A DNA stretch of 64,000 nt from Candidatus Enterousia sp. (GCA_045606425.1 JAZURV010000002.1:22706-86705), one strand, 5' to 3'. Positions 18,964 through 33,911 are shown, counted from the stretch's first letter. The notes: generated by a model not told the origin, from the letters alone. A program made the numbers and translations.

Positions 18964-20430
18964 CTAGTTAAATGTCCAACCGGTAAAAATTTTCCCGTTG
19001 ATATGCTGTGCCCGTTTTGGCGTGCGAATGTCACCATCATAGGTGACTGAACCTGCATTATTCGCATCTATATCCGATTGGTCTGCATTGTCCCATGTTA
19101 TGTTTATTGTGTTTGCTGTGCATACCGACGCACCCGCCCCCGACGAATATCCCGTTGCACATGATTCAATCCCCTGATTTGCGGACGCATCGAACGAATA
19201 AATTCCGCCAGTACAATATTTCCCCGCCGGACATTCAACACAAGAATCGTAATATTGTGGTAAATATTCACCTGCCACACAGGTTTGCGGCGTCGGGTCA
19301 TAACACGAAACCCGTTCGTTCCAAAAATCTTCATACCCTGTTATGTATTGCGTTGTACCAGATGGACAGTTCTTATCTAAACCCGTACCATCAAAAACAT
19401 ACGACCATGCGGAACCCAAATTACCGCTTCCGTTTTCTATCAATCCCCGAAACATTGATGTCGGAACATACCCGGTTATTTTCAAACAAAACCGGAAAGT
19501 ACCAGCGAATATTCCAGATTCTGCCCGTGTTACACTGGCAAATAAATTCTCTGGCAAAGATGTCAAACCGTAACATTCTGTAAAAGTGGCATAAAACGCG
19601 TTTCCGTTGGTAGTTACGGATGTAGAATCTTTGATATGACTGAACAGTCCTGAAGGTATATTTTTTAAAGCTGTACAGTGTACAAAAGTGCCGTAAAATA
19701 TGCCATATGAAAGATACGGCACGCTTTTAAATAAATTCTCCGGAATGTTTTGTAAGCGAACGCAATTATGAAAAGTATAACTAAACGCCCCATTCGCTGG
19801 TTGCCCGGATAAATCTGAAAAAAGATTTTCTGGTATTTCGATTAAATTGCTGCAATCTTTAAATGCATACGAAAAACTGGCTGTATTTACACCAGAAAAC
19901 AAATCCGATGGCAAAGATGTCAAAGCATTGGCATTGGCAAACACCGCAAAAAAACTTGGGTATTTTGTGTCGTTTCTTCCATACGATTTAAAAATTTCAC
20001 CCAAACTGCCACTTATATTAGTTATTAAATCTGGTCGTAAAACAGAATTATTCGGTGTGTGTGTACCAAAAACAATACAGCCATCGTTTCCGGAAGAAGA
20101 ATACCCGGTTGCCAATCCTGCAAAACGAATTGTTTGTGCGGACGGCGAATCCCAATTGCATGTATATGTTGCCACGGTCGTGTTGGTGCGCGTAATTGTC
20201 TTGCCAGAAATATCATCGGAACTGCTGGTCAATGTTCCGCCATTTCCACAATCAACATAGAAAGTCCCCTGTGCCGTCATGGTAAATTTGAACACATCTG
20301 TTTCAGATGTTGTGACGCTGAATTTGCTTTCGACACAGTTTGACCCGATATCTATTTCATTTGTTTCGCATGCAATAACTGGCGCGACAAATACGAATAT
20401 CGCACACAAAACAGATATCAAATATTTCAT
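18964..20430 (-). CDS. Secreted BspA-like leucine-rich-repeat protein with Cys-rich stalk
   Basis: Signal peptide; LxxIPENLF..FxxTFxxC repeats; C-terminus shared with 31374..33170. Confidence 0.8.
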   Translation of the reverse strand: MKYLISVLCAIFVFVAPVIACETNEIDIGSNCVESKFSVTTSETDVFKFTMTAQGTFYVDCGNGGTLTSSSDDISGKTITRTNTTVATYTCNWDSPSAQTIRFAGLATGYSSSGNDGCIVFGTHTPNNSVLRPDLITNISGSLGEIFKSYGRNDTKYPSFFAVFANANALTSLPSDLFSGVNTASFSYAFKDCSNLIEIPENLFSDLSGQPANGAFSYTFHNCVRLQNIPENLFKSVPYLSYGIFYGTFVHCTALKNIPSGLFSHIKDSTSVTTNGNAFYATFTECYGLTSLPENLFASVTRAESGIFAGTFRFCLKITGYVPTSMFRGLIENGSGNLGSAWSYVFDGTGLDKNCPSGTTQYITGYEDFWNERVSCYDPTPQTCVAGEYLPQYYDSCVECPAGKYCTGGIYSFDASANQGIESCATGYSSGAGASVCTANTINITWDNADQSDIDANNAGSVTYDGDIRTPKRAQHINGKIFTGWTFN

Positions 20431-20477
20431 TATCCCCCCCCGTTTCGACAAATCAAAAAACCACCAGAAAAAAAAAT

Positions 20478-20636
20478 CAGGCGGTTGGAGGTTAGAAACA
20501 ATTTAAGTCGAAATTGCGCCGTTTATTCATTATATTCACAGCCCTCCAACCTGAATTTGTTGGAGTTTTAACGTCAACATGGACGCGACTTAAACGAGGT
20601 TTCTAAGCCCCATCAGAAAAACAATTCCTGACAAAC
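20478..20636 (-). ncRNA. C4-antisense-like structured leader (copy A)
   Basis: Homologous to 31087-31271; AGGTTGGAGG/CCTCCAACC stem and covarying seed pairs. Confidence 0.6.
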
Positions 20637-20773
20637 ACATATTATCAAAAAACACCCTGTGATACAAGATATTTTTATACATTCGTCTATAATAATCATA
20701 AAAAACATAATTTTTTCTTGATTTTTGTTTTTTTTATGTCAAAATATTCCCCGAACGCAAAAAAAGCAGTTCT

Positions 20774-20849
20774 GGAGGCATAGCTCAGTTGGTAGAGCAA
20801 ATGACTTTTAATCATTGGGTCCAGAGTTCGAGTCTCTGTGCCTCCACCA
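20774..20849 (+). tRNA. tRNA-Lys(TTT)
   Basis: Cloverleaf GGAGGCA...AATGA-CTTTTAA-TCATT...GTTCGAG...TGCCTCCACCA. Confidence 0.95.
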
Positions 20850-21263
20850 AAAAAATCAACGACCTTTTGGTCGTTTATTTTTTTGCACAGAGACGAAGAA
20901 CGACAGAGTTCGAAAATAAGTAGATTTTGCAAGTGCAACGCAGCAAAATCGTCACGTTTTGCGCGCAGCAACACATTGAAAATGTGTTAGCGAGCGACTA
21001 TGAGTTTGTGTTTGCAAACGAAGTACAGCGAACACAATACGAATGCGGCGCAGGCATCTATGCCAAGCCAGTCTCTGTGCCTCCACCACGAAAAATTGTT
21101 AGCCCACACAAAAAAGTGTGGGCTTAAAATTTTTCAGTGTCCTGCCGTAGCCCAGCAATTTTTCACAGCAAATTATACTTTCTGGGAACGGCGAAGGCGG
21201 ACATTAAAACGACCTTTTGGTCGTTTATTTTTTTTTGCACAGAGATGAAGAACGACAGAGTTC
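20831..21263 (+). repeat. tRNA-Lys-linked repeats
   Basis: The 3'-terminal 19 bp of the tRNA (20831-20849) is repeated at 21070-21088. A ~55-bp terminator-like segment at 20858-20911 is repeated at 21208-21263. Confidence 0.8.
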
Positions 21264-21341
21264 ATTTTATTAAAAAACACTTGACAAACGATATTTTTGT
21301 ATTATATTTGCATTGTATTAACCAACCAAAAGGCAAAAAAC

Positions 21342-21800
21342 ATGGTGCAGATGACACAGAAAAAACGCATGATTTTGAACGCAGCCAACAATTTGGATTA
21401 TATTGGACAAACAGTGGTTTTCAATGCAAGCGTTGACGACGAAGGTGAAACAACAATCGCAGTGCACGTATACCAAAAAGATGAAAGAACAGGTTTTTTC
21501 GCTGACAATGTTCTTGCAGGCAAAAGTTTGAAAAAAATTGGTTTCAAAAAAGTTTCTACACCTGCCCAATACGGTGACATTTTGGCTTATGCTGATATCG
21601 TTCTTGAATATGAAATTGGCAAAAAACCTTATACCATAACAAAGGCCGATGTTAAAGAATTAGGCGCCCTGAAAGCGATTATGGATTATACAAACCCAAG
21701 AATACACGTCTGTCACGATTTAACACTGGGACTGGAAGAAGTTCCCGCCAGAGAATTCAGACAAGCGATTGCTAATTATTTGAAACAACATCAAAAGTAA
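21342..21800 (+). CDS. Hypothetical protein
   Basis: ORF with an upstream TTGACA promoter-like site and a downstream terminator. Confidence 0.6.
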   Translation: MVQMTQKKRMILNAANNLDYIGQTVVFNASVDDEGETTIAVHVYQKDERTGFFADNVLAGKSLKKIGFKKVSTPAQYGDILAYADIVLEYEIGKKPYTITKADVKELGALKAIMDYTNPRIHVCHDLTLGLEEVPAREFRQAIANYLKQHQK

Positions 21801-21814
21801 GTTGCAAAACTGTT

Positions 21815-21843
21815 AAAAAACCGCCTGAACAGGCGGTTTTTTT
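21815..21843. terminator. Bidirectional intrinsic terminator
   Basis: AAAAAACCGCCTG-AA-CAGGCGGTTTTTT. Confidence 0.85.
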
Positions 21844-22462
21844 ATTTTTCCCTATGTGAATTTTTCTTACGCGCGGTATAACCGGTGGCATAGAACCAAT
21901 CGTCTATCATGGACAGTGTTGTTTCAATATATCGCGCGATTTCTTTGGGCGAATTATGATATTTGTATTCGTTCAAAATCTGGTTTAATTCCTGGGCTAT
22001 AAAAGATAAAACCTGGGTATGTTGCGGGTCCAAAACCTCTATTTTATCTGATTTGTAAAGTAAATCTTCCAGGTTGTCCAATTGCTTTTGAATGCTTCGA
22101 ATATATTTGGCGTCCAGATTCAGTTTCTTGTAATTCAGGTTGATATCCTGCATTGGAACTTCGATATGTTTCAGGCCAATTATGTTTTTCATCTCTGCCA
22201 GAATTTTTAATAAATACCCGTCCAAAACACTTATAACGGCAATGTGTTGGTGTTTGTGCATGCGCCGCGTTATAAGAAAATTAGAATAATCATAAAACAA
22301 AAACACCAACGGAATCGCCAACAACGATGCCGCCACATTGTTCATTAAATCTATCCAATTCGGGTCATGCAGATAATCTTTGGACAGGTCAAAAACAATC
22401 ACCCCGCCCGCAATAGACAAAACATAAGGTATAGATTTCAAAGCAAAATGTATCAAAGACAT
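21842..22462 (-). CDS. Hypothetical membrane protein (2 TM)
   Basis: Start reassigned to MSLIHF; two hydrophobic helices. Confidence 0.6.
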   Translation of the reverse strand: MSLIHFALKSIPYVLSIAGGVIVFDLSKDYLHDPNWIDLMNNVAASLLAIPLVFLFYDYSNFLITRRMHKHQHIAVISVLDGYLLKILAEMKNIIGLKHIEVPMQDINLNYKKLNLDAKYIRSIQKQLDNLEDLLYKSDKIEVLDPQHTQVLSFIAQELNQILNEYKYHNSPKEIARYIETTLSMIDDWFYATGYTARKKNSHREK

Positions 22463-22597
22463 AACGATTATTATAGATATTTTTTGCGTTTTTAATACAA
22501 GAACTAAATCCCAGAAAAATGCACCCTGCCCTTGAAAATTGGCATAAAAAGCGCTATAATTATCATGTTGGGTGGTATAAACCAAAGGGGTGTAGTT

Positions 22598-24727
22598 ATG
22601 GCTTTATCATTAAAACAAAAACTGTTTGATTATTTTGCACAGCGTCATTTTGATTTAATGACACCTGAACAACGCGCCCGCTTTGATGATTATGCCAAGA
22701 ACGAAGATTTCCTTGGGCACATGAAACATTGGAACGATAATTACAAAGGTGCCATGTTGCCAGATTTATTATCTGCAACGGTCGCTGGTGCGGCGAACGA
22801 CCACCAACTAAGTCCCGCCGAATGGGAAGAATTATATGATGCTTTCCAAGAAGCGTTTCAAGCGATGGATTCGGCAAAAACACCATCTGTTGGTTTTGAA
22901 GGTCCATATAAAAAAGCCACGAAAGATTTTATTGCAAAATATTTCGGCGATTCTTCTAAAACATTTACAACAACCAGTGCAACAACGGGTCCAGGAAGTG
23001 CCACAGATATTCTTACACAGTTAAAAGATTTCTTGGGCGACAGAACTGTTACACCGCCTGCGACCCAAAGTCCATATACTGCGTTGAAACCATTTTTAAC
23101 AAACGTATTAAAAGATGTGTTTTCTGATGGTCTTGACTATGATGGGTTTATTGCCGGATTAAACAGTCAGAAATATAATTCTGATTTAAAATTTAGATCA
23201 AAAGTCGAAACTGTCATATATTATATCCAAAGAAACGGTCCCAGAATAGGCGCTTCTGTACCATCTCAAGGAGAATGGCCACAAGGCATAGGTTATACAT
23301 TTTTTGGTGCTGGTATAATGGCACAGGTAGACACTGTTGTGCCAGTATTAGAAAATATATATTCTGCAGATACGGATACGTGGTACGAAATGACGAACAA
23401 AAGTCGCCATGTCAATCAATTTAAAAACGATTTTTCAGAAATTTTTGATACACTATTGACCAAATCCACTGTGCGTTCTGATTTTTTGGCTAAAGCGCCT
23501 GACAAAATTTCTGCGCCTTTGACCAAGGCAATCGAACTGACCGATTATGAAAACAAAGATTCCAAAGACTATTTGCCAGAAAAGTATCCTGACGAAAAAA
23601 ATTGGATGCAACAATTTGAAGACTGGAAAAACGATACCTATGAAGATTATCTGCGTAAATTCACAAACCCAAGTCGCGGAACACGCATATTTTTCAGTCC
23701 TTGGTCGCAAAATATAATAAAAGCTTTTGATAAAGTAAAAATTAAACCAACCGATGGTTTGGAAGGAATCCTGGCAAAAAAGACTGAAATTGCAGACAAA
23801 CTAAAATCCAGTAAGAATTCGTCAGACCATTTTGATTGGTTTGTTAAGACTGTCGAATTATTAAAATCTGCCGGTATGGGCAAAGCAGTTGAAGGAGCAC
23901 TGCGCAATGGCGCGCAAATGCGTCATTTGGTATCAGGCCTGATTGCAGAGGCTGTAAAACAAGGCAAAGAAAAAGAAGCAAAAACCGCATTGGAAATTTT
24001 ATCTGTTGCAAAATACGGACTTTCATCCAGCAGAACCATGGATGCCATCAACAAAACAGATATGACAATATTTTCTGATGGAAAATTGTCTTGGAATAAA
24101 AACGAAGGCATCAAAATGGTCACAGGTGCATTTGACCGAACAATAAAAGCCGGAATCCAGGGCATTGGTTATGCCGCAACAGGTACATACAATTTCATAC
24201 AACATCGTCGCACAAAAATCGGAAACGATATCAGAAGTAATTCTGTACTGAAAAAAGCACACGATGAATGGGAACAAGAAGACAATCTGGCACTGACAAA
24301 CAAACAAAACGAAAATCGCCGTATGAATGTAGACATGAAATTGGATACATTGGCGCATGGACATGGATTATCAGGGCGCGTGATTGCAAACGAAACAGAC
24401 CTGACAAATGCGGAAAATGCTTTGTCTGCCATGGCACCAGGGGCCGCGGGATACGATGATTTAAAGGCTGATATCGATTTGTATAAAGATTCCAAATCCA
24501 GAAAAGATGCCGTTACAAATTGGCGCGATGACCACAAAGATAAATTCCGTGAACTGATTGCATATTGGGACATGTTGGAATCTGTTGGAAAAAGCCACTC
24601 TTTCACATTAGGCAGTATGAGCGCGAAACGCAAAGCATATATAAAAGATTTTGCACGCGGAACCAGTCAGGCGCAAAACGATTTTAATGCATACCTTGCC
24701 CAATATGGGGGACTTCGAACGGCTTGA
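22598..24727 (+). CDS. Large hypothetical helical protein
   Basis: Long ORF; start reassigned to MALSLKQK after an AAGGGG RBS. Confidence 0.7.
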   Translation: MALSLKQKLFDYFAQRHFDLMTPEQRARFDDYAKNEDFLGHMKHWNDNYKGAMLPDLLSATVAGAANDHQLSPAEWEELYDAFQEAFQAMDSAKTPSVGFEGPYKKATKDFIAKYFGDSSKTFTTTSATTGPGSATDILTQLKDFLGDRTVTPPATQSPYTALKPFLTNVLKDVFSDGLDYDGFIAGLNSQKYNSDLKFRSKVETVIYYIQRNGPRIGASVPSQGEWPQGIGYTFFGAGIMAQVDTVVPVLENIYSADTDTWYEMTNKSRHVNQFKNDFSEIFDTLLTKSTVRSDFLAKAPDKISAPLTKAIELTDYENKDSKDYLPEKYPDEKNWMQQFEDWKNDTYEDYLRKFTNPSRGTRIFFSPWSQNIIKAFDKVKIKPTDGLEGILAKKTEIADKLKSSKNSSDHFDWFVKTVELLKSAGMGKAVEGALRNGAQMRHLVSGLIAEAVKQGKEKEAKTALEILSVAKYGLSSSRTMDAINKTDMTIFSDGKLSWNKNEGIKMVTGAFDRTIKAGIQGIGYAATGTYNFIQHRRTKIGNDIRSNSVLKKAHDEWEQEDNLALTNKQNENRRMNVDMKLDTLAHGHGLSGRVIANETDLTNAENALSAMAPGAAGYDDLKADIDLYKDSKSRKDAVTNWRDDHKDKFRELIAYWDMLESVGKSHSFTLGSMSAKRKAYIKDFARGTSQAQNDFNAYLAQYGGLRTA

Positions 24728-24822
24728 TTTTTATGTTGATTTGTGATATAATGTGACTAATTCGGACGGCGTGTTGCCGTCCGTTTTTATTTTCCAAACA
24801 TTTTAAACTAAAAGGATTTAAT

Positions 24823-25404
24823 ATGACACGAATTCTGCAGATTCGTCGCGGCAGTGCCGCACAAAACGATAATTTTACCGGGCTTTCTGGTGAAATAACT
24901 ATGGACACAACAAACAAAACAATTCGCATACATGATGGCGAAACGCTGGGCGGAATTGCACTGGCGCGCGACAACACTGTTGTTCACCAGGGCGAAATTG
25001 TTCCGTTTGATATAAACACTGTCAGTGCTGATTTTTGGCAAAATTTGTTTGCGACATACCAATCTGCACCATTTAAAACCCAGGCAGGCAATTTGATGAA
25101 TGTCGTCAATAACGCGGCTTTTTTCGATGATTCTTTTTCTGAATTGACCGATTTGCCGTTATTTGTACGGGCAAGCCTGGTTTGCCAGGACGACAACGCG
25201 GGCTATGTCACTGGCGATGAAACATACGCATTTGGCATTGGCGATTATGTCGCGCCACTGGTTTACAGTTATATCGATAATGGCATTGTGCATGCACGCC
25301 TGTTTTCTGGGGCGCAGACATTTTGGGTGCCACATAAAACGACCGGCATTCGGACAAATTTGACCGCCAGCAAATGGAAACTAAAAATGACAGTTTATTA
25401 TTGA
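24823..25404 (+). CDS. Phage fibre protein with Mtd_N-like N-terminal domain
   Basis: ILQIRRGSAAQNDNFTGLSGEITMDTTNKTIRIHDGETLGG matches the N-terminal domain pattern of BPP-1 Mtd-type fibres. Confidence 0.7.
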   Translation: MTRILQIRRGSAAQNDNFTGLSGEITMDTTNKTIRIHDGETLGGIALARDNTVVHQGEIVPFDINTVSADFWQNLFATYQSAPFKTQAGNLMNVVNNAAFFDDSFSELTDLPLFVRASLVCQDDNAGYVTGDETYAFGIGDYVAPLVYSYIDNGIVHARLFSGAQTFWVPHKTTGIRTNLTASKWKLKMTVYY

Positions 25405-25464
25405 AAACCCAAAAAAATATGCTATGGTTATGCGCGAAGAATGAATGTAAACAAAGGATAAATA

Positions 25465-26715
25465 ATGTACATACTTGCTTTAAATTGTGGTTCATCGTCC
25501 CTGAAATACCAGGTGTTTGACGCAGATACTAAAAATGTTGTTGTTGGCGGAAATGTTGAAAAAATCGGATTGCCAGATTCTTTTGTGACACAAAAATATC
25601 CAGATGGAACAAAAGAAAAGAAAGTCACAGAAATGAAAGACCACAAAGAAGCATTAAGTGTCGTTATACAAATGTTGCAGGCTGCATCTGTCGATATGAA
25701 TGAAATCGGTGGTGTTGGTCATCGTGTTGTTATGGGTGGCGACAAATTCGCATCGTCTGTGGAAGTGACCGACGAAGTCATCAAAACCCTGCGTGATTTG
25801 ACACCATTGGCACCTTTGCACAACCCAAGTGGCGTGTTGGGAATCGTGACTGCAAAACAATTGTTGCCAAATGCAAAGCAAGTTGCCGTATTTGATACTG
25901 CATTTCATCAGACGATGAAACCGGTATCTTTCCGTTATCCTGTGCCATCTGAATGGTACACAGAATTGGGCGTACGCAGATACGGGTTCCACGGAACATC
26001 GCATTTGTATGTTTCAAAACGCGCAGCGGCGATGTTGGGCAAACCTGCATCGATGTGCAATTTAATTACTGCACACATTGGTTCGGGTGCATCCATCACA
26101 GCCATTAAAAACGGCGTCAGCGTGGATACTTCCATGGGAATGACACCAACCGCAGGTTTAATGATGGGAACGCGTTGTGGTGATATTGACCCATCTATTC
26201 CGTCCTATGTCGCAGCCCGCAAAGGTTTGTCGATTGAAACAGTTCAAAACGAATTGAATAAAAAATCTGGTTTGATGGGCGTGACCAAATGTTTCAGCGA
26301 CGGTCGCGATGTCAAAGAAAACCAAGACACCAACGAAGACTGCAAATTGGCATTGGAAATGCAGACCCAGACAGTGAAAAAATACATCGGTTCGTATATA
26401 GCTGAATTGGGACATGTTGACGCGTTGGTGTTGACCGCCGGGGTTTGCGAAAACGACGATTATATGCGCGAAAAATTCTGTGAAGGCATGGAAGAATTGG
26501 GCATAAAAATGGACAAAGAAGCGAATAAAAAAGCCGGCAGAGATGTTGCAGAGGCGGTTTTAAGCGCACCTGATTCGCGCATCAAAATCTTTAAGATTGC
26601 GACAAACGAAGAATTGGTTATTGTCGAAGACACAATCGCAATCATGAATGGCACATACAACGCCGACCATTTGAAAATGGCATATTCGTTTGCCACCTCA
26701 CAAAAAGTAAGATAA
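25465..26715 (+). CDS. ackA: Acetate kinase
   Basis: ILALNCGSSSLK, GHRVV, APLHNP, VAVFDTAFH, RRYGFHGTSH, TNEE. Confidence 0.95.
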   Translation: MYILALNCGSSSLKYQVFDADTKNVVVGGNVEKIGLPDSFVTQKYPDGTKEKKVTEMKDHKEALSVVIQMLQAASVDMNEIGGVGHRVVMGGDKFASSVEVTDEVIKTLRDLTPLAPLHNPSGVLGIVTAKQLLPNAKQVAVFDTAFHQTMKPVSFRYPVPSEWYTELGVRRYGFHGTSHLYVSKRAAAMLGKPASMCNLITAHIGSGASITAIKNGVSVDTSMGMTPTAGLMMGTRCGDIDPSIPSYVAARKGLSIETVQNELNKKSGLMGVTKCFSDGRDVKENQDTNEDCKLALEMQTQTVKKYIGSYIAELGHVDALVLTAGVCENDDYMREKFCEGMEELGIKMDKEANKKAGRDVAEAVLSAPDSRIKIFKIATNEELVIVEDTIAIMNGTYNADHLKMAYSFATSQKVR

Positions 26716-26729
26716 TATTTGTTATCAAG

Positions 26730-26759
26730 AAAAAACACTGGCAGACGCCAGTGTTTTTT
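26730..26759. terminator. Bidirectional intrinsic terminator
   Basis: AAAAAACACTGGC-AGAC-GCCAGTGTTTTTT. Confidence 0.8.
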
Positions 26760-26778
26760 AAGAAAACGTCCGAATATT

Positions 26779-27486
26779 TTAACGAGAATGACCGGGGTAT
26801 ACATCACCATGCGCAACGTCTTTTTGTGCAAGTTTTTGCACAGAATCACGAGCAGCATAAAATTTACGCGCCCGCTGTTTTGCTTCTTTTTCTGCCACGT
26901 GTCGTGCATAATGAGTTTCATCAAAACTATCTGCCCATACCGCATACTTTTGATATTTGTTGTCTATCGTGATATCCGTCTCGTTATAAGGAATCTCATA
27001 AGCGTCCAGCATACTCAAGTACAGCTCCACAGCCAAATAAGGTCTTTCTTTTAAAACGTTAGCAAGATTTACTTCTGGACCGTCAATATGATACAAATAC
27101 TCTTTCAAAAGATTCTGCTTATCTAAATCTTTTCCTTTTAACACTTGGGATATTTTTTGTGTTACATATTCTTTTTCTTTATCCGTCAACTTATTCCATA
27201 CTGGTTCCAGATGTTCTTTTTCACCCAATAGCAGATGTTCTTTTATTAAATCGAAGTAAAATTTTTCTGCCACTTTTATGCTATCTTCGTAAGCAGCCGC
27301 TTTTGCCAAATAATCATTCAATTCTGTTTTGACTGCTTTCTGTTCTTTAGCATTTTGCACCCCCGTAAACTTAGATACACCGAAGCCCAACAACACAGCA
27401 CCAATAATTGCCGCCGCGGCATTCTTAGGATCGCGCAATTGTTGACGAGCAACATCCAGCACGTTTTGCAAACTGTTTTTTTTCAT
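26779..27486 (-). CDS. Hypothetical protein with N-terminal TM
   Basis: AGGAG RBS; 235-aa ORF. Confidence 0.6.
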   Translation of the reverse strand: MKKNSLQNVLDVARQQLRDPKNAAAAIIGAVLLGFGVSKFTGVQNAKEQKAVKTELNDYLAKAAAYEDSIKVAEKFYFDLIKEHLLLGEKEHLEPVWNKLTDKEKEYVTQKISQVLKGKDLDKQNLLKEYLYHIDGPEVNLANVLKERPYLAVELYLSMLDAYEIPYNETDITIDNKYQKYAVWADSFDETHYARHVAEKEAKQRARKFYAARDSVQKLAQKDVAHGDVYPGHSR

Positions 27487-27668
27487 ATCAACACTCCTTA
27501 ATTTTCATTATTTTCAATGATACCATAAACCAAGACTTAAATCAAGCCTTTTATACCATTATTCCCAAGAAATGCACAACACAGAGGTTTTGCTATTAAA
27601 AATGGCACACATTAGTCATCATAGTTTTTTATTGGCACAAAAATAAAAAATTTGCTAAATTTAATAAT

Positions 27669-29735
27669 ATGGATAATGAAATCTTTGATTTTTTTAATAC
27701 AGATTTACAATTTATACATGGCGTGGGACCTGTGCTGGCCGCGAAATTTGACGAAGTGTTGGGCGGGCGACGCGTTCTGGATTTCTTGTTGCATATTCCG
27801 TCCTATGTTCGTCCGCGCGAAATACTTGATTCTGTGGTTGGTGCACAAAATGGCGATACGATTACAATTTCATTACAGGTAAAATCTCACAAGAAAGGCG
27901 GTTTCTTTCGCGGTCGCCGCACCCCCAGTCAAATCGTCTGTGCAGATAAATTTGCCGCCCCCGTGACAATTCAATTTTTTAATACTAAATTTCTGGATTA
28001 TTGGATGGAAAAGATGCCAATCGGTCAATGGCGTATCGTCAGTGGCAAACTGGAATTTAACAACCGAAATGGCGCGATAATCAACCACCCTGATTTTATC
28101 GAAACGCCTGAAAACGCGTCAAAAATCCCGGCGCACCAGGCAATTTATCCGTCCGGCGCAGGATTGAGCCAGAAAACATTTTCCAATGTGCGCGACCAAA
28201 TTTTCAATATCATGCATGAACGAATTGCCGCGTATAAACTAAGCGAACGAATGCTGGAATTTTTGGACGCGTTGGAACATGTACACTATCCAGAAAACAA
28301 TGATGATTTGGCACCAAACAGTGATTATATTATAAAGTTAGCCTATTCTGAATTATTCGCACATCAAAGTGCGATTGCTATAAATCGTCGCGCACGATTG
28401 GCACAAAAAAATACGCGCCCAATTCGCCCAACTATCAAAAATCTGGTTGATAAATTCTATGAAATTTTGCCGTTTGAATTGACCGGCGCCCAACAACGAA
28501 CCATTGGTGAAATATACGCCGACATGGCACAGCCCATACCGATGATGCGCCTGGTTCAGGGCGATGTCGGTTCTGGCAAAACCATGGTTGCAATGGCGGC
28601 GGCGGTCAAAATGTCTGAAACAGGTGCACAAACAGTGTTATTGGCACCGACAGATACCCTGGCGCAACAACATTTCGCAAAAATAAAACCTATGTGCGAT
28701 GAAATTGGTCTGGTTTGCGATGTGTTGACCGGGCGCGACAAAGGCGCGGCGCGACGCGAAAAACTGATATCGCTGAAATCGGGGCGCACAAAAATCGCAA
28801 TTGGAACGCATGCCCTGTTTTCCGATGATGTAGAATACCGCGATTTGGGTTTGGTTATAATCGACGAACAGCATCGCTTTGGCGTGGACCAACGCACCGC
28901 CATGCGTGCCAAAGGAAAAAATCCAGATATGTTGGCACTGTCTGCGACGCCTATTCCGCGGACTTTATCTATGACTGTTTATGGTGATATGGATATTTCG
29001 ATTATAAATGAAAAGCCCGCAGGCCGCATGCCGATTAAAACATCTAAATTGCCGGTGGCGCGCGTGAATGCGCTGATTGAACGCATCGCGCCCCAGGTTG
29101 CAAACGGTGCAAAAATATTCTGGGTCTGTCCCCTGGTCGCAGAATCAGAGGTTTCAGACATGACCGCCGCAGAACAACGATGGGAAGAATTAAAAAAACA
29201 TTTCCCCGGCACTGGTCTTTGCCATGGTCAGATGGATAAAAAACAACGCGACAGTGTTATGGCTGAATTCGCAGACGAAAATTCAAAAATGCGCGTTCTG
29301 GTTTCGACCACTGTTATAGAGGTCGGAATCGATGTCCCGTCTGCCACGATTATGGTGATTGAAAACGCAGAACGATTTGGATTGGCTGCCCTGCACCAAT
29401 TACGCGGACGCGTCGGACGCGGGTCAAAACAATCATTCTGTGTTCTGTTATATGGATTAAATGTATCGCCAGATGGGATAAAACGATTAGATGTCCTTTG
29501 CGAAACAGACGACGGTTTCGTTATCGCAGAACAAGATTTAATGATGCGTGGCGTTGGTGAATTACTGGGCACGCGCCAAAGCGGTTGGATTCAATATCAT
29601 TTTGTAAACTATCGCGAACATCGGGATTTATTCAAATTGGCCCAGACCGCCGCCATGAATAATAATGACGAAGATATGTTGTGGGCAAAAACTTTGCGAA
29701 AAATATTTGATTGTTCAACTGTGGCGGGGGCATAA
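27669..29735 (+). CDS. recG: ATP-dependent DNA helicase RecG
   Basis: RLVQGDVGSGKT, IIDEQHRFGV, SATPIPRT, HQLRGRVGRG. Confidence 0.95.
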   Translation: MDNEIFDFFNTDLQFIHGVGPVLAAKFDEVLGGRRVLDFLLHIPSYVRPREILDSVVGAQNGDTITISLQVKSHKKGGFFRGRRTPSQIVCADKFAAPVTIQFFNTKFLDYWMEKMPIGQWRIVSGKLEFNNRNGAIINHPDFIETPENASKIPAHQAIYPSGAGLSQKTFSNVRDQIFNIMHERIAAYKLSERMLEFLDALEHVHYPENNDDLAPNSDYIIKLAYSELFAHQSAIAINRRARLAQKNTRPIRPTIKNLVDKFYEILPFELTGAQQRTIGEIYADMAQPIPMMRLVQGDVGSGKTMVAMAAAVKMSETGAQTVLLAPTDTLAQQHFAKIKPMCDEIGLVCDVLTGRDKGAARREKLISLKSGRTKIAIGTHALFSDDVEYRDLGLVIIDEQHRFGVDQRTAMRAKGKNPDMLALSATPIPRTLSMTVYGDMDISIINEKPAGRMPIKTSKLPVARVNALIERIAPQVANGAKIFWVCPLVAESEVSDMTAAEQRWEELKKHFPGTGLCHGQMDKKQRDSVMAEFADENSKMRVLVSTTVIEVGIDVPSATIMVIENAERFGLAALHQLRGRVGRGSKQSFCVLLYGLNVSPDGIKRLDVLCETDDGFVIAEQDLMMRGVGELLGTRQSGWIQYHFVNYREHRDLFKLAQTAAMNNNDEDMLWAKTLRKIFDCSTVAGA

Positions 29736-29737
29736 AG

Positions 29738-31033
29738 ATGAAACGCATATTTATGATTTTATTTTCTGTTTTTGTCGCACTGAATGCGAATGGCGCAACG
29801 ATTATAAACGATACAGAAATCGAAAAACAAATCACTGAAATTATAAAACCAATCGCGAACGCGGCAGATATTTCGACAAAAAGATTAAAAGTTTACATTG
29901 TAAACGACAACGATTTTAATGCCTTTGTCCGTGGTGGCGAAGATGTTTTTGTTTACACAGGTTTGTTAAAACAGATAAAAAACCCAAACGCCCTGCGCGC
30001 AGTTATTGCGCACGAATTGGGACATACTATCGGTGGACACATGGTTCAGATGTCGTCGCGCATACATGATGAAATGGTGCGCACAATGATTATCCAGGCA
30101 TTGGGGGTCGGGCTGATGGTGGCGGGCGGAAATCCAACCGCAGGCGTTGGTGTTATGGCGGGCGCGTCAGGCATCGCACAACAATCTATGCTGTCTTTTT
30201 CGCGTGACGAAGAACGCATGGCTGATGATATGGCGGTCGATTTGATGGTAAAGGCAAATCAGGACCCAAACGGACTGATAACTGTGTTCGAACAAATGCA
30301 CGATATGCACGGCGCGATTGAATCACGGATAAATCCAAATCGCATAAATCACCCCCTGACAGGCGAACGCATAAATAACGCAAAAACGAAAATATCAAAA
30401 CTGAAAAAATTGCCCAATATAGATGCGACAAATACCGCAACAGAAAATGCAAACTATGAAATATTGCGCGCGAAACTGATTGGGTATTTGGACAACGATA
30501 AAAATGTAGCGACAAAATACCCCTATTCCAACAAATCAGACGCGGCAATATACGCCCGTGCAATTGCTAATATGCGGGGCGGCGATTTAAAAACCGCAAA
30601 ATCAGGAACACAAACACTGATTAAACGGCACCCACGCAACCCATATTTTTACGAACTGATGGGCGATATAGAATTTCAATTTGGCGCATACGACGACAGT
30701 ATCGCCGCATATGAAAAAAGTTTATCTTTGACAAAAAATGCACCACAAATTGAAACCGCATTGGCATTGGTGCTTAGCGAACGAAACAAACCAGGCGACA
30801 CTGAACGCGCACGCGAATTATGCAAACGCGTTATATTGAACGAACCCGCGCCACTGGCATATTGGATATTGGCACGCGTGACGACGGGCGGTGAATCTGA
30901 TTGGGCAATGGCAGAATTCTATAACATGAACGGCGACAAAAAGAACGCGAAAAAATACGCGAAATTGGCCCAGAAAAAATCCAAAAAAGATTCGCCTGAA
31001 TACATAAAATCCGATGACATATTAAAAAAATAA
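29738..31033 (+). CDS. M48 metalloprotease with TPRs (BepA/YfgC-like)
   Basis: FNAF, VIAHELGH, FSRDEERMAD, HPLTGERI; signal peptide. Confidence 0.85.
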   Translation: MKRIFMILFSVFVALNANGATIINDTEIEKQITEIIKPIANAADISTKRLKVYIVNDNDFNAFVRGGEDVFVYTGLLKQIKNPNALRAVIAHELGHTIGGHMVQMSSRIHDEMVRTMIIQALGVGLMVAGGNPTAGVGVMAGASGIAQQSMLSFSRDEERMADDMAVDLMVKANQDPNGLITVFEQMHDMHGAIESRINPNRINHPLTGERINNAKTKISKLKKLPNIDATNTATENANYEILRAKLIGYLDNDKNVATKYPYSNKSDAAIYARAIANMRGGDLKTAKSGTQTLIKRHPRNPYFYELMGDIEFQFGAYDDSIAAYEKSLSLTKNAPQIETALALVLSERNKPGDTERARELCKRVILNEPAPLAYWILARVTTGGESDWAMAEFYNMNGDKKNAKKYAKLAQKKSKKDSPEYIKSDDILKK

Positions 31034-31086
31034 AAATCTTTATTAAAATTCACTTGCACAATCATACAGATTTTTTATAGAATGAA

Positions 31087-31271
31087 TTTGTCGAAAGGTG
31101 TTCTTTTGACGGGGTGTGAAGACCCGTAATAAAACAGCGTCCGAAAACAAAAAAATTTGGATGAAAAAATCTCCAGCCACATTAGGTTGGAGGGCGCGTG
31201 AATACTGTGTATTATTACACACAATAAACGGCACAATTTCTGTTTTAATTGTCTTCAACCTCCAACCGCCT
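31087..31271 (+). ncRNA. C4-antisense-like structured leader (copy B)
   Basis: Homologous to 20478-20636 (minus strand) with compensatory changes. Confidence 0.6.
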
Positions 31272-31373
31272 ATATTATAAGTGCGGTTTTTTTGTATTGC
31301 CATAAGAAGGATTTGACAATACGAATTCGCCACGGTTTGTACCCTGGCGAAAATCTGGGAAAGGAAAGGGATA

Positions 31374-33170
31374 ATGAAAAAAATTATATCTTTTTTATTT
31401 GCGGTATTTGTTTTTGTTGCGCCCGCAATCGCATGTGAAACAAATGAAATAGATGTATTGGGTGATGGCACACAGTGCGAAATCGCACATTTTACACTTA
31501 CCACAACATCAACAAACAGTTTTCAATTCACAATGTCTGCGGCGGGGACTTTTTATGTCGATTGTGGAAACGGCGGAACATTGAAACAAGGAAGCACGAC
31601 ACTTTCTAATAAGACAATTTCGCGCGGTTCTTCTACATCAAATACAACATACACATGTACGTGGAATGCCGCGGACACACAAACAATCCGATTCGGCGGT
31701 CGCGCAACAGAATACAGCACTGGCTTACAAACTGCAGTAATTGGTTTTTATGCCGACAGCGACACAAACGCGCAAAAGGTTTATTCGATTACCGGTGATT
31801 TGGGTAAAATATTCGGCGCCGTCCAAAGTAACAGGATACCAAGGTTTTTCCAAACTTTTTACAATTGCAGTAATTTAACCAGTATTCCAACGGGATTATT
31901 TGATTCCATTGATACATCCAATGCAACCAATACAAATCAAATGTTTTACCAAACATTTCGCGATTGCAGTAATTTAACCGCGATACCAACGGGATTATTT
32001 GATTCCATTGATACCTCCAATGCAACCGATACAAATGGTATGTTTTCCCAAACATTTAACGGTTGCAGTAATTTAACCGCAATACCAACGGGATTATTTA
32101 ATTCCATTGATACATCCAAATCGACCAATACAAGTTCTATGTTTTCCCGTACATTTTCCAACTGCAGTAATTTAACCGCGATACCAACGGGATTATTTAA
32201 TTCCATTGATACATCCAAATCGACCAATACAAGTTTTTTGTTTCGCGAAACATTTATCAATTGCGGGAATTTAACCGCAATACCATCTGGATTATTTAAT
32301 TCCATTGATACATCCAATGCAACCGGTACAAGTTCTATGTTTAACGGCACATTTTACGGTTGCAGTAATTTAACCGCAATACCATCTGGATTATTTGATT
32401 CCATTGATACATCCAATGCAACCGGTACAAGTTCTATGTTTAACGGCACATTTTACGGTTGCAGTAATTTAACCGCAATACCATCTGGATTATTTAATTC
32501 CATTGATACACCCAATGCTACCAATACAAGTTTTATGTTTCAAAAAACATTTTCCGCTTGCAGCAATTTAACCAGTATGCCGGCGTCTTTGTTCAATTCG
32601 AATATCAACATGGCAAAGGCAACCAGGCGTTCCGATATGTTTTCCCAAATGTTTCAAAATTGTGCCAACATGACCGGATATATTCCATCAACAACGTTCC
32701 CCGACGGAATAACGGCGGCGTTAAATGCATCAAGCGATGTTTTTGCTGGCACACAATTGGCAACCGTTTGTCCGGGCGGAACCCAATTGTATGCAACATA
32801 TACCCCAAATTCAAAGGTCGCATGTGAAATTTTGGGAACGGAATGTTCGGCGGGACAATATTTGCCCATGAATACCAGTGTTTGTGCAACATGTCCGACA
32901 AATGGCATCTGTCCTGGCGGAACATATACTTTTAACGATACGACCGTCCAGGGTATTACCGGTTGCGATGTGGGTTATACTCTATCCGTTGATGTTTGTG
33001 ATGCGAATGTAATCAGCGTCACATGGGACCATGCGACCCAATCTGATATTACGGAAAATGACGCAGGTTCCGTGACATACGGTGGCGACATTCGCACGCC
33101 AAAACGCGCGCAACATATAAACGGAAAAATCTTTACCGGTTGGGTATTTAACACGCCGTCTGGCAACTAA
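31374..33170 (+). CDS. Secreted BspA-like LRR protein with 33-aa tandem repeats
   Basis: Signal peptide; CSNLTAIPTGLFxSIDTS..TxTxxMFxxTFxx repeats; C-terminus shared with 18964..20430. Confidence 0.85.
   Translation: MKKIISFLFAVFVFVAPAIACETNEIDVLGDGTQCEIAHFTLTTTSTNSFQFTMSAAGTFYVDCGNGGTLKQGSTTLSNKTISRGSSTSNTTYTCTWNAADTQTIRFGGRATEYSTGLQTAVIGFYADSDTNAQKVYSITGDLGKIFGAVQSNRIPRFFQTFYNCSNLTSIPTGLFDSIDTSNATNTNQMFYQTFRDCSNLTAIPTGLFDSIDTSNATDTNGMFSQTFNGCSNLTAIPTGLFNSIDTSKSTNTSSMFSRTFSNCSNLTAIPTGLFNSIDTSKSTNTSFLFRETFINCGNLTAIPSGLFNSIDTSNATGTSSMFNGTFYGCSNLTAIPSGLFDSIDTSNATGTSSMFNGTFYGCSNLTAIPSGLFNSIDTPNATNTSFMFQKTFSACSNLTSMPASLFNSNINMAKATRRSDMFSQMFQNCANMTGYIPSTTFPDGITAALNASSDVFAGTQLATVCPGGTQLYATYTPNSKVACEILGTECSAGQYLPMNTSVCATCPTNGICPGGTYTFNDTTVQGITGCDVGYTLSVDVCDANVISVTWDHATQSDITENDAGSVTYGGDIRTPKRAQHINGKIFTGWVFNTPSGN
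31866..32600 (+). repeat. 99-bp tandem repeat array (about 7.5 units)
   Basis: Unit starts (TGCAGTAATTTAACC and variants) at 31866, 31965, 32064, 32163, 32262, 32361, 32460 and 32559. Confidence 0.95.
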
Positions 33171-33617: not shown

Positions 33618-33695
33618 TGGGGCGGGTGACCAGATTCGAACTGGCGACATTCGGTACCACAAACCGACGCTCTAACCAACTGAGCTACACCCGCC
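33618..33695 (-). tRNA. tRNA-His(GTG)
   Basis: G-1 GCGGGTG...TCGGT-TTGTGGT-ACCGA...GTTCGAAT...CACCCGC C CCA. Confidence 0.95.
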
Positions 33696-33835: not shown

Positions 33836-33911
33836 TGGTGGAGCTGATCAGACTCGAACTGACGACCCCTTGCATGCCATGCAAGTGCTCTACCAACTGA
33901 GCTACAACCCC
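33836..33911 (-). tRNA. tRNA-Ala(GGC)
   Basis: GGGGTTG...CTTGCATGGCATGCAAG...GTTCGAG...CAGCTCCACCA. Confidence 0.95.

Follow-up and report, generated by a model that had tools for sequence, protein, structure and literature searches.

Each of the leader RNAs described here probably acts in cis as a transcription attenuator that is OFF by default and is built from a self-pairing antisense module of the C4/sRNA-Xcc1 type. Two of these RNAs, leaders A and B, were explored in a stretch of 64,000 nucleotides (the window) from the genome of a Candidatus Enterousia-like gut alphaproteobacterium. The reading draws on the anatomy of the leaders, two folds and their covariation, the energy ranking of these folds, the genomic context, and kinship with sRNA-Xcc1.

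In the proposed mechanism, a -10-type promoter would start an RNA of about 180 nt. This RNA would carry, in order, a hairpin (P0), the gene-specific targets a1 and b1, P2 and e1, a 3' domain (e2, P4, Px with b' in its loop, a', and e3), e4 with a U-run, and the ORF. In the ground state, T, a1 and b1 would pair with a' and b' as helix P1 (about 17 bp). The e2 segment would be held by e1 and e3 would thus be free, so that the e3:e4 terminator hairpin could form, stacked on P1, and transcription would stop ahead of the gene. In the other state, AT, a1, b1, and e1 would be absent or occupied, and pairing of e2 with e3 would close the 3' domain as a three-way junction. The junction has the fold of sRNA-Xcc1, and its Px loop displays b'. 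The 5' arm of the terminator would be consumed and RNA polymerase would read into the gene. The actual termination, its regulation, and what flips the switch are inferred. If the rest of the explanation holds, the trigger could possibly be RNA of the leader itself, its 3' domain (processed or free) binding a1/b1 while the cognate transcript is still nascent. A protein may serve instead, or the trigger may be kinetic.

Anatomy of the leaders

An earlier note on this DNA had described two leaders with a common scaffold and with seed pairs that differ between the leaders and are complementary within each. Relocating the quoted strings confirmed both leaders, the scaffold, and all four seed pairs, and the complementarity is borne out by the coordinates and by covariation among 82 family members. 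In leader A (minus strand), a1 (TTAGAAAC, 20599-20606) pairs with a' (GTTTCTAA, 20492-20499) and b1 (TTTAAGTCG, 20586-20594) pairs with b' (CGACTTAAA, 20502-20510). In leader B (plus strand), a1 (TGAAGAC, 31117-31123) pairs with a' (GTCTTCA, 31251-31257) and b1 (TAAAACAG, 31130-31137) pairs with b' (CTGTTTTA, 31240-31247). The motifs common to both are GGGG, GCGTCC, CTCCA, GGTTGGAGGGC, AATAAACGGC, CAATTTC, and CCTCCAACCGCC, and mean column identity in the A/B alignment is 73%. The structure of both leaders exceeds chance. Leader A folds at -62.5 kcal/mol (z -5.42) and leader B at -69.6 kcal/mol (z -5.73), and in each case 0/200 dinucleotide shuffles were as stable. Together, the two seed pairs of each leader make up a single long-range helix in its minimum-energy fold. 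The seeds are foremost the two strands of a helix inside one RNA.

Leader A, from P0 to the terminator U-run, occupies 20453-20634 on the minus strand (model R1, 180.5 bits, G000:C2:43158-43339, plus fold), and the parts that follow are on that strand. A -10-like box, GATAATAT (20639-20646), is found about 6 nt ahead of P0 and was not called by a consensus promoter scan. The 5'-terminal hairpin P0 is at 20612-20632 (helix 1, 8/8 pairs changed on both sides, 94% of cells paired). The 5' strands of helices P1a and P1b are a1 (helix 3, 8/8 pairs compensatory) and b1 (helix 4, 9/9 compensatory), and the 3' strand of P1a is a', located by its relocated string and by covariation. The a1 segment is bordered by GGGG (20608-20611) and CCTC, which is only suggestive of a local hairpin, GGGG-a1-CCYC. 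P2 (CGTCC...GACG, 20572-20585) was identified from the fold (helix 5). The e1 segment (CTCCAAC, 20559-20565) pairs with e2 as P3, the putative anti-antiterminator (helix 6, 96.6% paired, 7/7 double changes). Covariation of both folds supports two partners for e2 (GGTTGGAGG, 20543-20551), e1 or e3, and two for e3 (CCTCCAACCGCC, 20480-20491), e2 as antiterminator or GGGG plus e4 as terminator. The hairpin P4 (20518-20542, fold and covariation), with its GAATA...GAATAA loop, aligns to the first hairpin of sRNA-Xcc1. Px (CAATT/AATTG, 20499-20516) shows double changes in 5/5 pairs (AT-fold helix 3), holds b' as its loop, and formed only without the 5' third of the leader when partial RNAs were folded. 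The terminator 3' arm, e4, and U-run are at 20455-20465 (helix 8, 9/9 pairs compensatory). The gene after A (18964-20430, minus strand, ATG at 20428-20430) encodes a 488-aa protein with a signal-peptide-like start, as judged by eye, for which no Pfam family reaches its cut-off.

Leader B occupies 31088-31294 on the plus strand (model R1, 144.1 bits, G000:C2:53793-53999, plus fold) behind a -10-like box, TAGAAT (31078-31083; TGCACA-17-TAGAAT, 9/12 matches). Its parts, located by strings and fold, are the P3 hairpin (e1 31171-31178, e2 31185-31193), P4 with an inserted distal hairpin (31194-31232, from the fold and the family alignment), the 5' arm of Px (31234-31238), e3 (31259-31270), and the terminator 3' arm with U-run (31283-31293). 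The gene after B (31374-33170, plus strand) encodes a 598-aa repeat protein with a signal-peptide-like start, and its paralogues behind other leaders reach the Pfam DUF285 cut-off. The window holds a third copy, of subfamily II, at 6447-6643 on the minus strand (C2:29149-29332, 32.5 bits, E 1.8e-6, model R1). Its elements are e1 CCCTAAC, e2 GGTTGGGGAG, and e3 CTCCCCGACCGCC, and a gene for a lipoprotein-like protein of 188 aa follows (5858-6424, minus strand).

Two exclusive folds

The earlier note had suggested that a wider set of copies be examined for covariation. In the alignment A7, which holds 82 family members picked independently of the motif, the T fold has a covariation score of 0.648 against 0.195 when shuffled, with slid partners at <=0.103, and the check came out in favor of the pairing. 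Changes on both sides are seen in 53/54 pairs. In this fold 91.7% of cells are paired against 65.8% shuffled, figures that are biased toward the T fold because the model used to align A7 was itself derived from that fold and that overstate independent events, many rows being paralogues. The pairs specific to the AT fold (e2:e3 and Px) covary as well. Here 91.8% of cells are paired against 81.7% shuffled, 12/14 pairs are compensatory, and the score is 0.293 against 0.145 (slid partners <=0.067), although the covariation of e2:e3 is partly forced because e1:e2 and e3:e4 also pair. One AT pair, 225:407, lies outside every T-fold helix and is GC in 54 and UA in 7. The segments e1, e2, e3, and e4 change in concert across subfamilies, as in the sets CTCCAAC/GGTTGGAGG/CCTCCAACC/GGTT, CCCTGAC/GGTCGGGG/CCCCGACC/GGTC, and CTCCAGC/GGCTGGAGG/CCTCCAGCC/GGCT.

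Classical four-segment attenuators and ON riboswitches are represented by trp, pyr, and pbuE. The Enterousia leaders resemble them in their overlapping e1:e2, e2:e3, and e3:e4 helices, each supported by covariation. They differ in having no leader peptide (no conserved ORF was seen by eye), no tRNA-binding or known ligand-binding core, and an extra, variable P1 that would lock the OFF state.

The seeds are also inverted repeats about 110 bp apart, and the mosaic identity among paralogous cassettes fits sequence exchange. These features could describe a DNA-level element in which the seeds would let a promoter cassette invert or recombine site-specifically. This is hardly credible. Among paired cells, G-U (370) far outnumbers A-C (64), and the pairing is therefore at the RNA level and on the leader strand. 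The repeats differ in every copy, so there is no single recombinase site, and every helix covaries, even hairpins with no role as repeats.

In 26/26 copies the T fold has the lowest energy, and forcing the AT fold costs +4.8 to +33.2 kcal/mol. The helices appear along the growing chain in the order P3, P1b, P1a, and terminator. The isolated 3' domain folds into the three-way junction (A -24.7, B -30.3 kcal/mol). P1 is too stable for energies alone ever to allow read-through, and an additional factor is therefore needed by the attenuator. A consensus terminator scan called the terminator of neither A nor B because their loops are 10-14 nt and the limit of the scan is 8 nt. The U-run is weak in two copies (L029 and L031).

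Known ON switches can have a three-way junction that overlaps a terminator. By analogy, a metabolite or an RNA-binding protein could stabilize the AT junction, and one signal would then activate a surface-protein regulon. The GAAUA/GAAUAA internal loop of P4 is conserved in subfamily I and in sRNA-Xcc1, and one scaffold before 26 genes suggests co-regulation. This riboswitch-like or protein-dependent antiterminator seems quite unlikely. The P4 loop motif is lost in subfamily II, no Rfam riboswitch class matches the element, and the search for a candidate regulator found none; the small proteins encoded after 6 leaders are without a Pfam match. P1 and P3 are also transcribed earlier and are 5-33 kcal/mol more stable, which is a large gap for a ligand.

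Family and genomic context

A covariance model identified 26 full-length copies of the leader, of about 180 nt each, in the 0.93 Mb genome. Covariance-model searches also found copies in 35/36 genus relatives and in 9 other alphaproteobacterial families. The earlier note had tied a pair of leaders to LRR surface genes. The pair exists; the family is larger, it is not specific to the LRR type, and several protein families are encoded downstream. A same-strand ORF follows 26/26 full-length copies, its start 12-206 nt past the element, and this placement is also seen in the other families. By eye, 20/26 of these ORFs have a signal-peptide-like start and many are preceded by a G-rich Shine-Dalgarno-like run. 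A -10-like box is present at constant spacing in the alignment of the 16 subfamily I copies, and the 10 subfamily II copies have TATAAT-like boxes ahead of them. Every copy also begins with a hairpin at its 5' end. Tandem units without intervening ORFs are found at L073 (5 matches in 1.2 kb) and L067 (2).

A free-standing RNA accounts for these tandem units no less well than the attenuator does. The leaders could be small-RNA genes of the sRNA-Xcc1 type, with other targets or with protein binding, that are merely linked to independently transcribed genes. Every unit comes with a -10 box and a terminator of its own, and sRNA-Xcc1 was first described in Xanthomonas campestris, according to excerpts of PMC2996969, as a stable 88-nt sRNA. 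We consider this explanation unlikely in view of the constant position directly upstream of a same-strand ORF, here and in other families, and of spacers between terminator and ORF that are often short and leave scant room for a promoter. The conserved e2 and e3 motifs were found nowhere outside the leaders, and a search of 1.4 kb downstream and 300 nt upstream found no cognate complementary site.

Kinship with known RNAs

The sole Rfam family that recognizes the Enterousia element is sRNA-Xcc1 (RF02221), with 37.4 bits on the relative L191 and 34.2, 29.9, 25.7, and 25.5 bits on four copies in the bacterium's own genome, all below the gathering score of 53 bits. There was no match on A or B. 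Four of the five matches in the own genome are leaders, and the matches coincide exactly with the 3' domain. Helix by helix, the closing stem of sRNA-Xcc1 corresponds to e2:e3, its hairpin with the AAUA/GAAUAA loop to P4, and its second hairpin to Px. In the reverse direction, model R1 matches 2/20 true Xcc1 loci over the full length.

sRNA-Xcc1 is known from integron cassettes, upstream of symE (bioRxiv 10.1101/2025.06.18.660453), and from Xylella islands, with 7 in one Xylella genome (PMC12189769). Genuine loci have an a1b1, a'b', and a2b2-at-RBS layout. An upstream GGGG-a1-CCCC-b1 is complementary to the loop and linker (13/14 by eye, and energies agree), and a2/b2 flank the Shine-Dalgarno of the next gene (rank <=2 in 11/20). 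In the Enterousia leaders this a2/b2 target is absent at the start codon (rank <=2 in 1/26; cognate -6.93 against non-cognate -7.05 kcal/mol). Unlike sRNA-Xcc1 loci, the leaders have an intrinsic terminator at their end, overlapping e3, and a genome holds from 26 to at least 42 of them, compared with 1-6 copies in a sample of the phylum. The genes behind them encode surface proteins, and those behind sRNA-Xcc1 are antirepressor, symE, and uncharacterized small genes. A phage antirepressor or Rha type gene is downstream at 4/17 sRNA-Xcc1 loci. The earlier note had proposed a phage-type switch. Its kin sometimes precede antirepressor genes, as C4 precedes ant; a phage origin is unsupported, with only 2 matching IMG/VR contigs and no adjoining phage hallmark gene.

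The leaders had also been read as C4-type RNAs. The analysis supports this in part: the way the element works is like that of C4, but it does not belong to the family. The C4 layout includes a1/b1 targets. The leaders have these, a'/b', and copy-specific seeds, and seed changes are matched in the targets. Each is a structured RNA within the leader of the operon that it would control. The Rfam C4 model (RF01695) found nothing across the genome, A and B included, at E<=10, and true Xcc1 loci were not matched at E<=0.1. In excerpts of PMC5320573, the a'/b' loops of C4 occlude the RBS, and in P1/P7 this is described as blocking in trans that follows RNase P processing (also in parts of PMC8198154). 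In Enterousia the sole target found is an upstream part of the RNA itself, the output is predicted to be termination, and a' is in a single-stranded linker rather than a hairpin loop.

A domesticated phage-type antisense RNA could act in trans, with each released 3' domain acting only on the nascent a1/b1 of its own gene as an orthogonal RNA code. If true, every gene could thereby have a self-sustaining ON/OFF switch of its own. The seeds are distinct in all 26 copies, and the a1b1:a'b' duplex averages -14.5 kcal/mol for cognate and -4.3 for non-cognate pairs, equal to shuffled ones (-4.4). Seed diversity is expected of any unconstrained helix among old paralogues, and orthologous pairs keep identical seeds (L060/L064, L194/L195, and L205/L200), so there is no sign of fast diversification. 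The AT fold, which places b' in a hairpin loop, is conserved and is barred while a1, b1, and e1 are in cis, and a state without them is therefore implied. Yet the seeds stay buried in the terminated T-fold RNA. A trans-type a2/b2 layout and a position ahead of antirepressor genes are found in sRNA-Xcc1, the nearest family; the Enterousia start codons have no such target and the C4 model finds no match. The Enterousia e2 begins with GGU, and a GGW motif is given at the RNase P cut of C4-type RNAs in excerpts of PMC5320573. RNase P RNA is present in the host and a search for Hfq did not find it. The ORF-less tandem arrays also fit a trans-acting RNA. Overall, we give this possibility little credence and retain the cis-acting attenuator.

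In the immunity system of satellite phage P4 (CI RNA; seqA, seqB, and seqC), an antisense segment of the leader pairs upstream in the same transcript and causes premature termination. P4 CI confers immunity by acting in trans, and it has a downstream target as well. The Enterousia leaders share the upstream self-pairing and the predicted termination, a likeness drawn by description. They differ in that P4 is a phage system and no phage context was found for the leaders.

The Group 1 C4-like sRNAs of Acinetobacter baumannii match the Rfam C4 model and are proposed, in the excerpted parts of PMC5320573, to act in trans. As far as those parts describe them, they too are a phage-type antisense fold multiplied in one genome, with a conserved scaffold and variable seeds within longer transcripts. 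On the same partial description they differ from the Enterousia leaders, which the C4 model does not match and which carry terminators directly before ORFs.

Leaders A and B

The genes for the 488-aa (18964-20430, minus strand) and 598-aa (31374-33170, plus strand) proteins are each preceded by an RNA leader. Leader A (20453-20634, minus strand) and leader B (31088-31294, plus strand) were located by their match to R1, a covariance model of the leader family, and by their folds. The scaffold and seed strings quoted for them in the earlier note were each found at the coordinate it had assigned, and the observation is confirmed and greatly extended beyond A and B. In the alignment, A and B have a mean column identity of 73%. 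The folding energies are -62.5 kcal/mol for leader A (z -5.42) and -69.6 kcal/mol for leader B (z -5.73), with none of 200 shuffles as good in either case.

The seed pairs had been described as complementary within each copy. They are, and in the folds of A and B they form the two halves, P1a (a1 with a') and P1b (b1 with b'), of a single long-range helix. This P1 helix has three hairpins inside it and is followed downstream by a hairpin with a U-run. A G+C-rich hairpin with a U-run between promoter and ORF was seen in A and B, in sequence and in the folds, as well as in the family alignments; the U-run is weak in two family copies. A consensus scan for promoters and terminators called the -10 box of B and missed the terminators of both A and B because their loops are longer than 8 nt. 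A leader peptide was also considered. Leader A contains an ATG-started frame of 12 codons that, by eye, is not conserved in B or in the other copies, and this candidate was rejected.

Family Size and Genomic Context

The earlier note had presented the leaders as a pair. Its copies are real, but they are not a pair, since the genome contains 26 full-length copies. The assembly, 95% complete, comprises 15 contigs with 933,348 bases in total. BLAST with leader A found 13 places in it. R1, which was built from 16 copies and has 180 positions and 54 pairs, found 26 full-length matches (E <= 2.2e-6), 16 in subfamily I, including A and B, and 10 in the more distant subfamily II. Two more weak matches are a bare terminator and a fragment. 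A third copy in the window, from subfamily II, was matched by R1 at 6447-6643 (minus strand). The gene that follows it (5858-6424, minus strand) encodes 188 aa with a lipoprotein-signal-like start (LVGC).

In each of the 26 copies, a -10-like box lies a few bases 5' of the 5' hairpin, and a same-strand ORF starts 12-206 nt past the element. Judged by eye, 20 of these ORFs begin like a signal peptide or lipoprotein. The remaining six encode small proteins of 101-125 aa; these non-secreted proteins were searched with Pfam as candidate regulators and matched no family. Among the downstream proteins as a whole, the Pfam cut-off for DUF285 was reached by two paralogues of the gene after B, and the Listeria-Bacteroides repeat was at or just below its cut-off in six. 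The window's own two genes, after A and after B, reached no cut-off.

Many leader-controlled proteins of differing length end in a common C-terminal module of about 45 aa (…ITWD…AG.VTYGGDIRTP..A.H..GK.FTGWTF), and a similar module, like the Listeria-Bacteroides repeat, is found at the start of others. Examples of proteins with shared modules are encoded at 18964-20430 (minus strand) and 31374-33170 (plus strand), and behind leaders L005, L002, and L014 in the same genome. These modules look like a shared surface-anchoring or recognition domain.

Enterousia, in the order Rs-D84, is described as a group of gut bacteria whose genomes measure 0.75-1.0 Mb and carry about 780-1,200 genes (PMC12306168). 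The exact subfamily I pattern occurs in at least 117 stretches, in records of 'Candidatus Enterousia sp.', 'uncultured Alphaproteobacteria', and 'Rickettsiales bacterium' MAGs. R1 matched 49 of the 61 genomes drawn as relatives, this genome counted. Within the genus it matched 35 of 36, with at least 42 matches in one genome. All 13 genomes from other families of the order were matched, each having been re-searched since it had been matched previously. A class-wide draw gave 11 of 151 genomes, namely this one, one relative in the genus, and nine from as many other families. In genomes of distant families, the next ORF often starts like a lipoprotein, secreted protein, or prepilin, and the starts of other next ORFs resemble those of a glycosyltransferase or of an XRE regulator (both by eye).

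Tandem copies were also observed. Locus L073 (482-1664, plus strand), from a relative, has five R1 matches in 1.2 kb, each with a -10-like box and most with a U-run, and no ORF between them; the array stops ahead of an XRE-type regulator gene. Locus L067 (1501-1896, minus strand) has two tandem units, each with a -10-like box and again with no ORF between.

In a search for a trans-encoded partner, neither an e2 nor an e3 motif was found outside the leaders, and single near-matches were ordinary coding sequence. In IMG/VR, the exact subfamily I pattern was found on only two contigs with no phage hallmark gene adjacent. The ORFs beside it match an ABC transporter, a methyltransferase, and an unknown PHROG. 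These two contigs give no support to the phage link that the earlier note had drawn for leaders of the Enterousia type.

Two Mutually Exclusive Folds

Covariation in a larger alignment, on which the earlier note had made its reading depend, is present for both of two alternative folds. It was scored on A7, an alignment of 82 sequences assembled without selection by motif: the 26 copies of this genome, hits from 29 loci of the genus (those with the best match of each genome), and hits from the order's other families. The T fold consists of P0, the P1 base, P1a, P1b, P2, P3 (e1 with e2), P4, and the terminator (e3 with e4). It pairs 91.7% of cells (65.8% when shuffled), and both sides have changed in 53 of its 54 pairs. 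Its covariation score is 0.648 (0.195 shuffled; at most 0.103 with slid partners), as pair counts on alignments that were fitted by a model built on this same fold and in which many rows are paralogues. In the smaller alignment A4 (80 sequences, 49 of them picked by pattern), the T fold pairs 90.7% of cells in comparison with 70.4% shuffled.

The pairs specific to the AT fold are exclusive with the T fold. They comprise e2 (GGUUGGAGG) with e3 (CCUCCAACC) and the Px hairpin (CAAUU / AAUUG), which has the P1b 3' strand as its loop. In A7 they pair 91.8% of cells (81.7% when shuffled), both sides have changed in 12 of 14, and the covariation score is 0.293 (0.145 shuffled; slid maximum 0.067), a signal that for e2:e3 is partly forced by e1:e2 and e3:e4. 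One pair of this set, 225:407, is in no T-fold helix and is found as GC 54, UA 7, and UG 2 times. The terminator and the antiterminator are mutually exclusive as they share strand e3, which pairs with either e4 or e2.

The four strands e1, e2, e3, and e4 were found to change together. They read CUCCAAC / GGUUGGAGG / CCUCCAACC / GGUU in one set, CCCUGAC / GGUCGGGG / CCCCGACC / GGUC in a second, and CUCCAGC / GGCUGGAGG / CCUCCAGCC / GGCU in a third; a further co-changing variant has ...GGAAGG / CUUCC.... Joint change of this kind across lineages is what marks a series of anti-antiterminator, antiterminator, and terminator. There are 370 G-U cells and 64 A-C cells, and thus the constraint is on the RNA of the leader strand and not on DNA repeats. 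A local hairpin, GGGG[a1]CCYC, is no more than suggestive, with a covariation score of 0.314 in comparison with 0.215 shuffled and 0.249 after a slide of +1.

The minimum-energy structure is the T fold in all 26 copies of the genome, and forcing e2:e3 costs 4.8 to 33.2 kcal/mol. When growing prefixes of A and B were folded at equilibrium, P3, P1b (once b' emerges), P1a, and the terminator appeared in turn; the AT fold and Px never did. The isolated 3' domain, from e2 to e3, adopts exactly the AT junction (-24.7 kcal/mol for A, -30.3 for B), a closing stem with two hairpins, in which b' lies in a loop and a' in a single-stranded linker. Hence the AT fold, whose conservation is seen in covariation, requires a1, b1, and e1 to be absent or occupied.

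Seeds and Gene Specificity

The seeds differ in each copy of the genome. The cognate a1b1:a'b' duplex averages -14.5 kcal/mol, and the non-cognate duplex, at -4.3 kcal/mol, equals shuffled strands (-4.4). Among paralogues, P1b varies more than any other part, with an identity of 0.55 in comparison with 0.85-0.90 elsewhere. In three pairs of presumed orthologues from different species (L060/L064, L194/L195, and L205/L200), P1b is unchanged at 15/15 or 18/18 positions, and the downstream or flanking DNA is 76-86% identical. Within this genome, leaders L038 and L040 have almost wholly different P1b helices and coding starts that are about 98% identical (by count). Two explanations fit, gene conversion that leaves the paired seeds untouched or selection that holds them distinct.

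By these comparisons, the seeds are stable labels of each gene. Fast diversification could explain their variety. As orthologues keep P1b while paralogues differ, old paralogues with gene conversion also fit. Seed diversity may have been selected for specificity or may simply be old, and these data fit both.

Relation to sRNA-Xcc1 and C4

The earlier note had interpreted the leaders as C4-like antisense RNAs and proposed a search with the Rfam C4 model. In the whole genome, RF01695 gave no match at >= 45 bits and none at E <= 10; A and B had none at E <= 10, nor did 20 other family loci at E <= 1. The C4 interpretation thus has partial support. The leaders work like C4, but membership in its family and a target at the ribosome-binding site did not hold up, with no model match and no a2/b2 words at the next gene. 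The strands a1 and b1 are part of the C4 layout. In C4, the a'/b' loops occlude the ribosome-binding site (PMC5320573). At the ribosome-binding sites of the leaders' next genes, the duplex with cognate a'b' averages -6.93 kcal/mol and with non-cognate -7.05. The cognate ranked second or better in 1 of 26, in a test that does detect a2/b2 in true sRNA-Xcc1 loci. An exact-word test found no shared substrings above chance, and no third cognate copy of the seeds was found within 150 or 1,400 nt downstream or 300 nt upstream. Unlike C4, the leaders are not ahead of an antirepressor in a phage immunity region; their next genes encode secreted or surface proteins or small unknown ones.

No known riboswitch class in Rfam was matched by the window, by A and B, or by the 20 family loci. 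A metabolite riboswitch is unlikely for this reason and because there is no invariant ligand pocket, the junction and loop sequences differing between subfamilies I and II. Permissive Rfam scans gave two chance-level matches each for A and B, and none to sRNA-Xcc1 (RF02221). The 20 family loci gave a sub-threshold sRNA-Xcc1 match and chance-level leader or sRNA names only.

The gathering score of RF02221 is 53 bits. No leader reaches it, the best being L191 at 37.4 bits. On the 3' domain of L191, the model's closing stem corresponds to e2:e3, its first hairpin to P4, and its second to Px. In the genome, four of the five RF02221 matches at E <= 10 are on leaders (34.2, 29.9, 25.7, and 25.5 bits). 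Conversely, R1 matched 2 of 20 genuine sRNA-Xcc1 loci at full length, with E about 1e-3. Like sRNA-Xcc1, the leaders have a three-way junction in which a closing stem carries two hairpins, the first with an AAUA / GAAUAA loop, although the loop motif is missing from subfamily II. Both also have upstream strands complementary to the second hairpin loop and the linker (P1a and P1b), a feature that was found here in genuine sRNA-Xcc1 loci and is outside Rfam's definition.

In a phylum draw of 151 genomes, 24 had RF02221 matches above the cut-off. The genuine loci studied were L231-L250 (for example, L241:1501-1583 and L234:1397-1481, both minus strand). Of 14 loci inspected by eye, 13 have an upstream GGGG-a1-CCCC-b1 complementary to the linker (a') and Px loop (b'). 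Both words recur flanking the Shine-Dalgarno of the next gene (a2-SD-b2-ATG); in L241, CCGAAAA and CAAACAGC are present upstream and again at GGAG...ATG. The upstream duplex averages -29.4 kcal/mol for cognate and -22.3 for non-cognate strands, and the downstream duplex -19.2 and -15.7. For each duplex, the cognate is among the top two in 11 of 20 loci. The next gene was searched at 17 loci. Two encode Bro-N with the P22 antirepressor C-terminal domain, one a sub-cut-off Bro-N, one Rha, one Rap1a, and 12 no Pfam family. Thus, 4 of 17 are of the phage antirepressor (Bro-N/P22_AR_C) or Rha type.

The layout of genuine sRNA-Xcc1 loci is the a1b1 / a'b' / a2b2 arrangement of C4. The C4 model has no match on them at E <= 0.1, so the likeness to C4 is one of design rather than of demonstrated homology. 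In the portions available of published accounts, sRNA-Xcc1 is placed upstream of symE in integron cassettes (bioRxiv 10.1101/2025.06.18.660453) and of an ORF6N protein in APSE phages, and in Xylella it is adjacent to annotations of C4 and of isrK (PMC12189769, Table 4). Those portions do not describe the a1b1/a2b2 layout. Literature that names sRNA-Xcc1 and C4 antisense RNA together has, in the portions available and among the matches listed, both names as annotations. Annotated in many genomes as a virulence-linked sRNA without a known mechanism, sRNA-Xcc1 is recast by this layout as a likely regulator of the C4 type, one that has targets both upstream and where ribosomes bind the next gene.

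In the leaders, unlike in genuine sRNA-Xcc1 loci, e3 overlaps an intrinsic terminator in place of a ribosome-binding-site target. With no a2/b2 and with e3 overlapping the terminator, the leaders are therefore a C4/Xcc1-type module that targets only its own upstream a1/b1 and is predicted to act by termination.

Possible Mechanism

The leaders are probably default-OFF, self-antisense transcription attenuators of sRNA-Xcc1/C4 design, ahead of about 26 mostly surface-protein genes. If so, about 3% of the genes of a host-dependent gut bacterium with roughly 900 genes are under one RNA device, and most of the controlled genes encode surface or secreted proteins. The device would derive from the antisense-immunity tool kit of phages and would have been rewired so that it ends in a terminator. 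It would also be a rare attenuator with a self-targeting antisense pair as its sensor helix, both states of which are visible in covariation. The seed pairs could provide natural orthogonal parts for RNA engineering.

The boldest reading of what releases the switch is a gene-specific trans-acting RNA. Each leader would then be an RNA-only, self-sustaining ON/OFF switch, which we consider unlikely. In the OFF state, a1/b1 of the nascent leader would pair with its own a'/b', transcription would terminate, and the seeds would remain buried. In the ON state, read-through transcripts might yield a free 3' domain, for example by RNase P cleavage at the GGU that opens e2. This domain, with b' shown in its loop, would capture a1/b1 only on newly made transcripts of its own gene, forcing the antiterminator and making the ON state self-maintaining. 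The genome has RNase P RNA (C13:16662-16995) and RNase III (C14:1151-1498), and e2 starts with GGU. Hfq was not found in the 95%-complete assembly, so any RNA-RNA regulation there would work without it. Such a switch would amount to a phage immunity circuit converted to antigenic or phase variation. The mutually orthogonal seed pairs, numbering from 26 to at least 42, could allow a bacterium with few regulators to vary each surface protein independently and without DNA rearrangement.

Other Features of the Window

On the minus strand, leader A has a run of eight G at 20434-20441, exactly at the ribosome-binding site, and a run of nine T at 20468-20476, in the terminator loop. Other copies have five to seven G at the place of the former. 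Runs of this kind can vary in length by slippage.

Between terminator and start codon, B (31294-31373, plus strand) and one paralogue in the same genome (L020, on contig C13) have an extra spacer of about 80 nt. The two spacers have a common word, GGATTTGACAA, that is similar to the -35 box TTGACA. If the spacer held a second promoter, transcription from it would bypass the leader.

Three tRNA genes are present in the window, at 20774-20846 (plus strand), 33621-33694 (minus strand), and 33839-33911 (minus strand), and Rfam at gathering thresholds finds nothing else. The first of these is about 130 nt upstream of the promoter of leader A, on the opposite strand.
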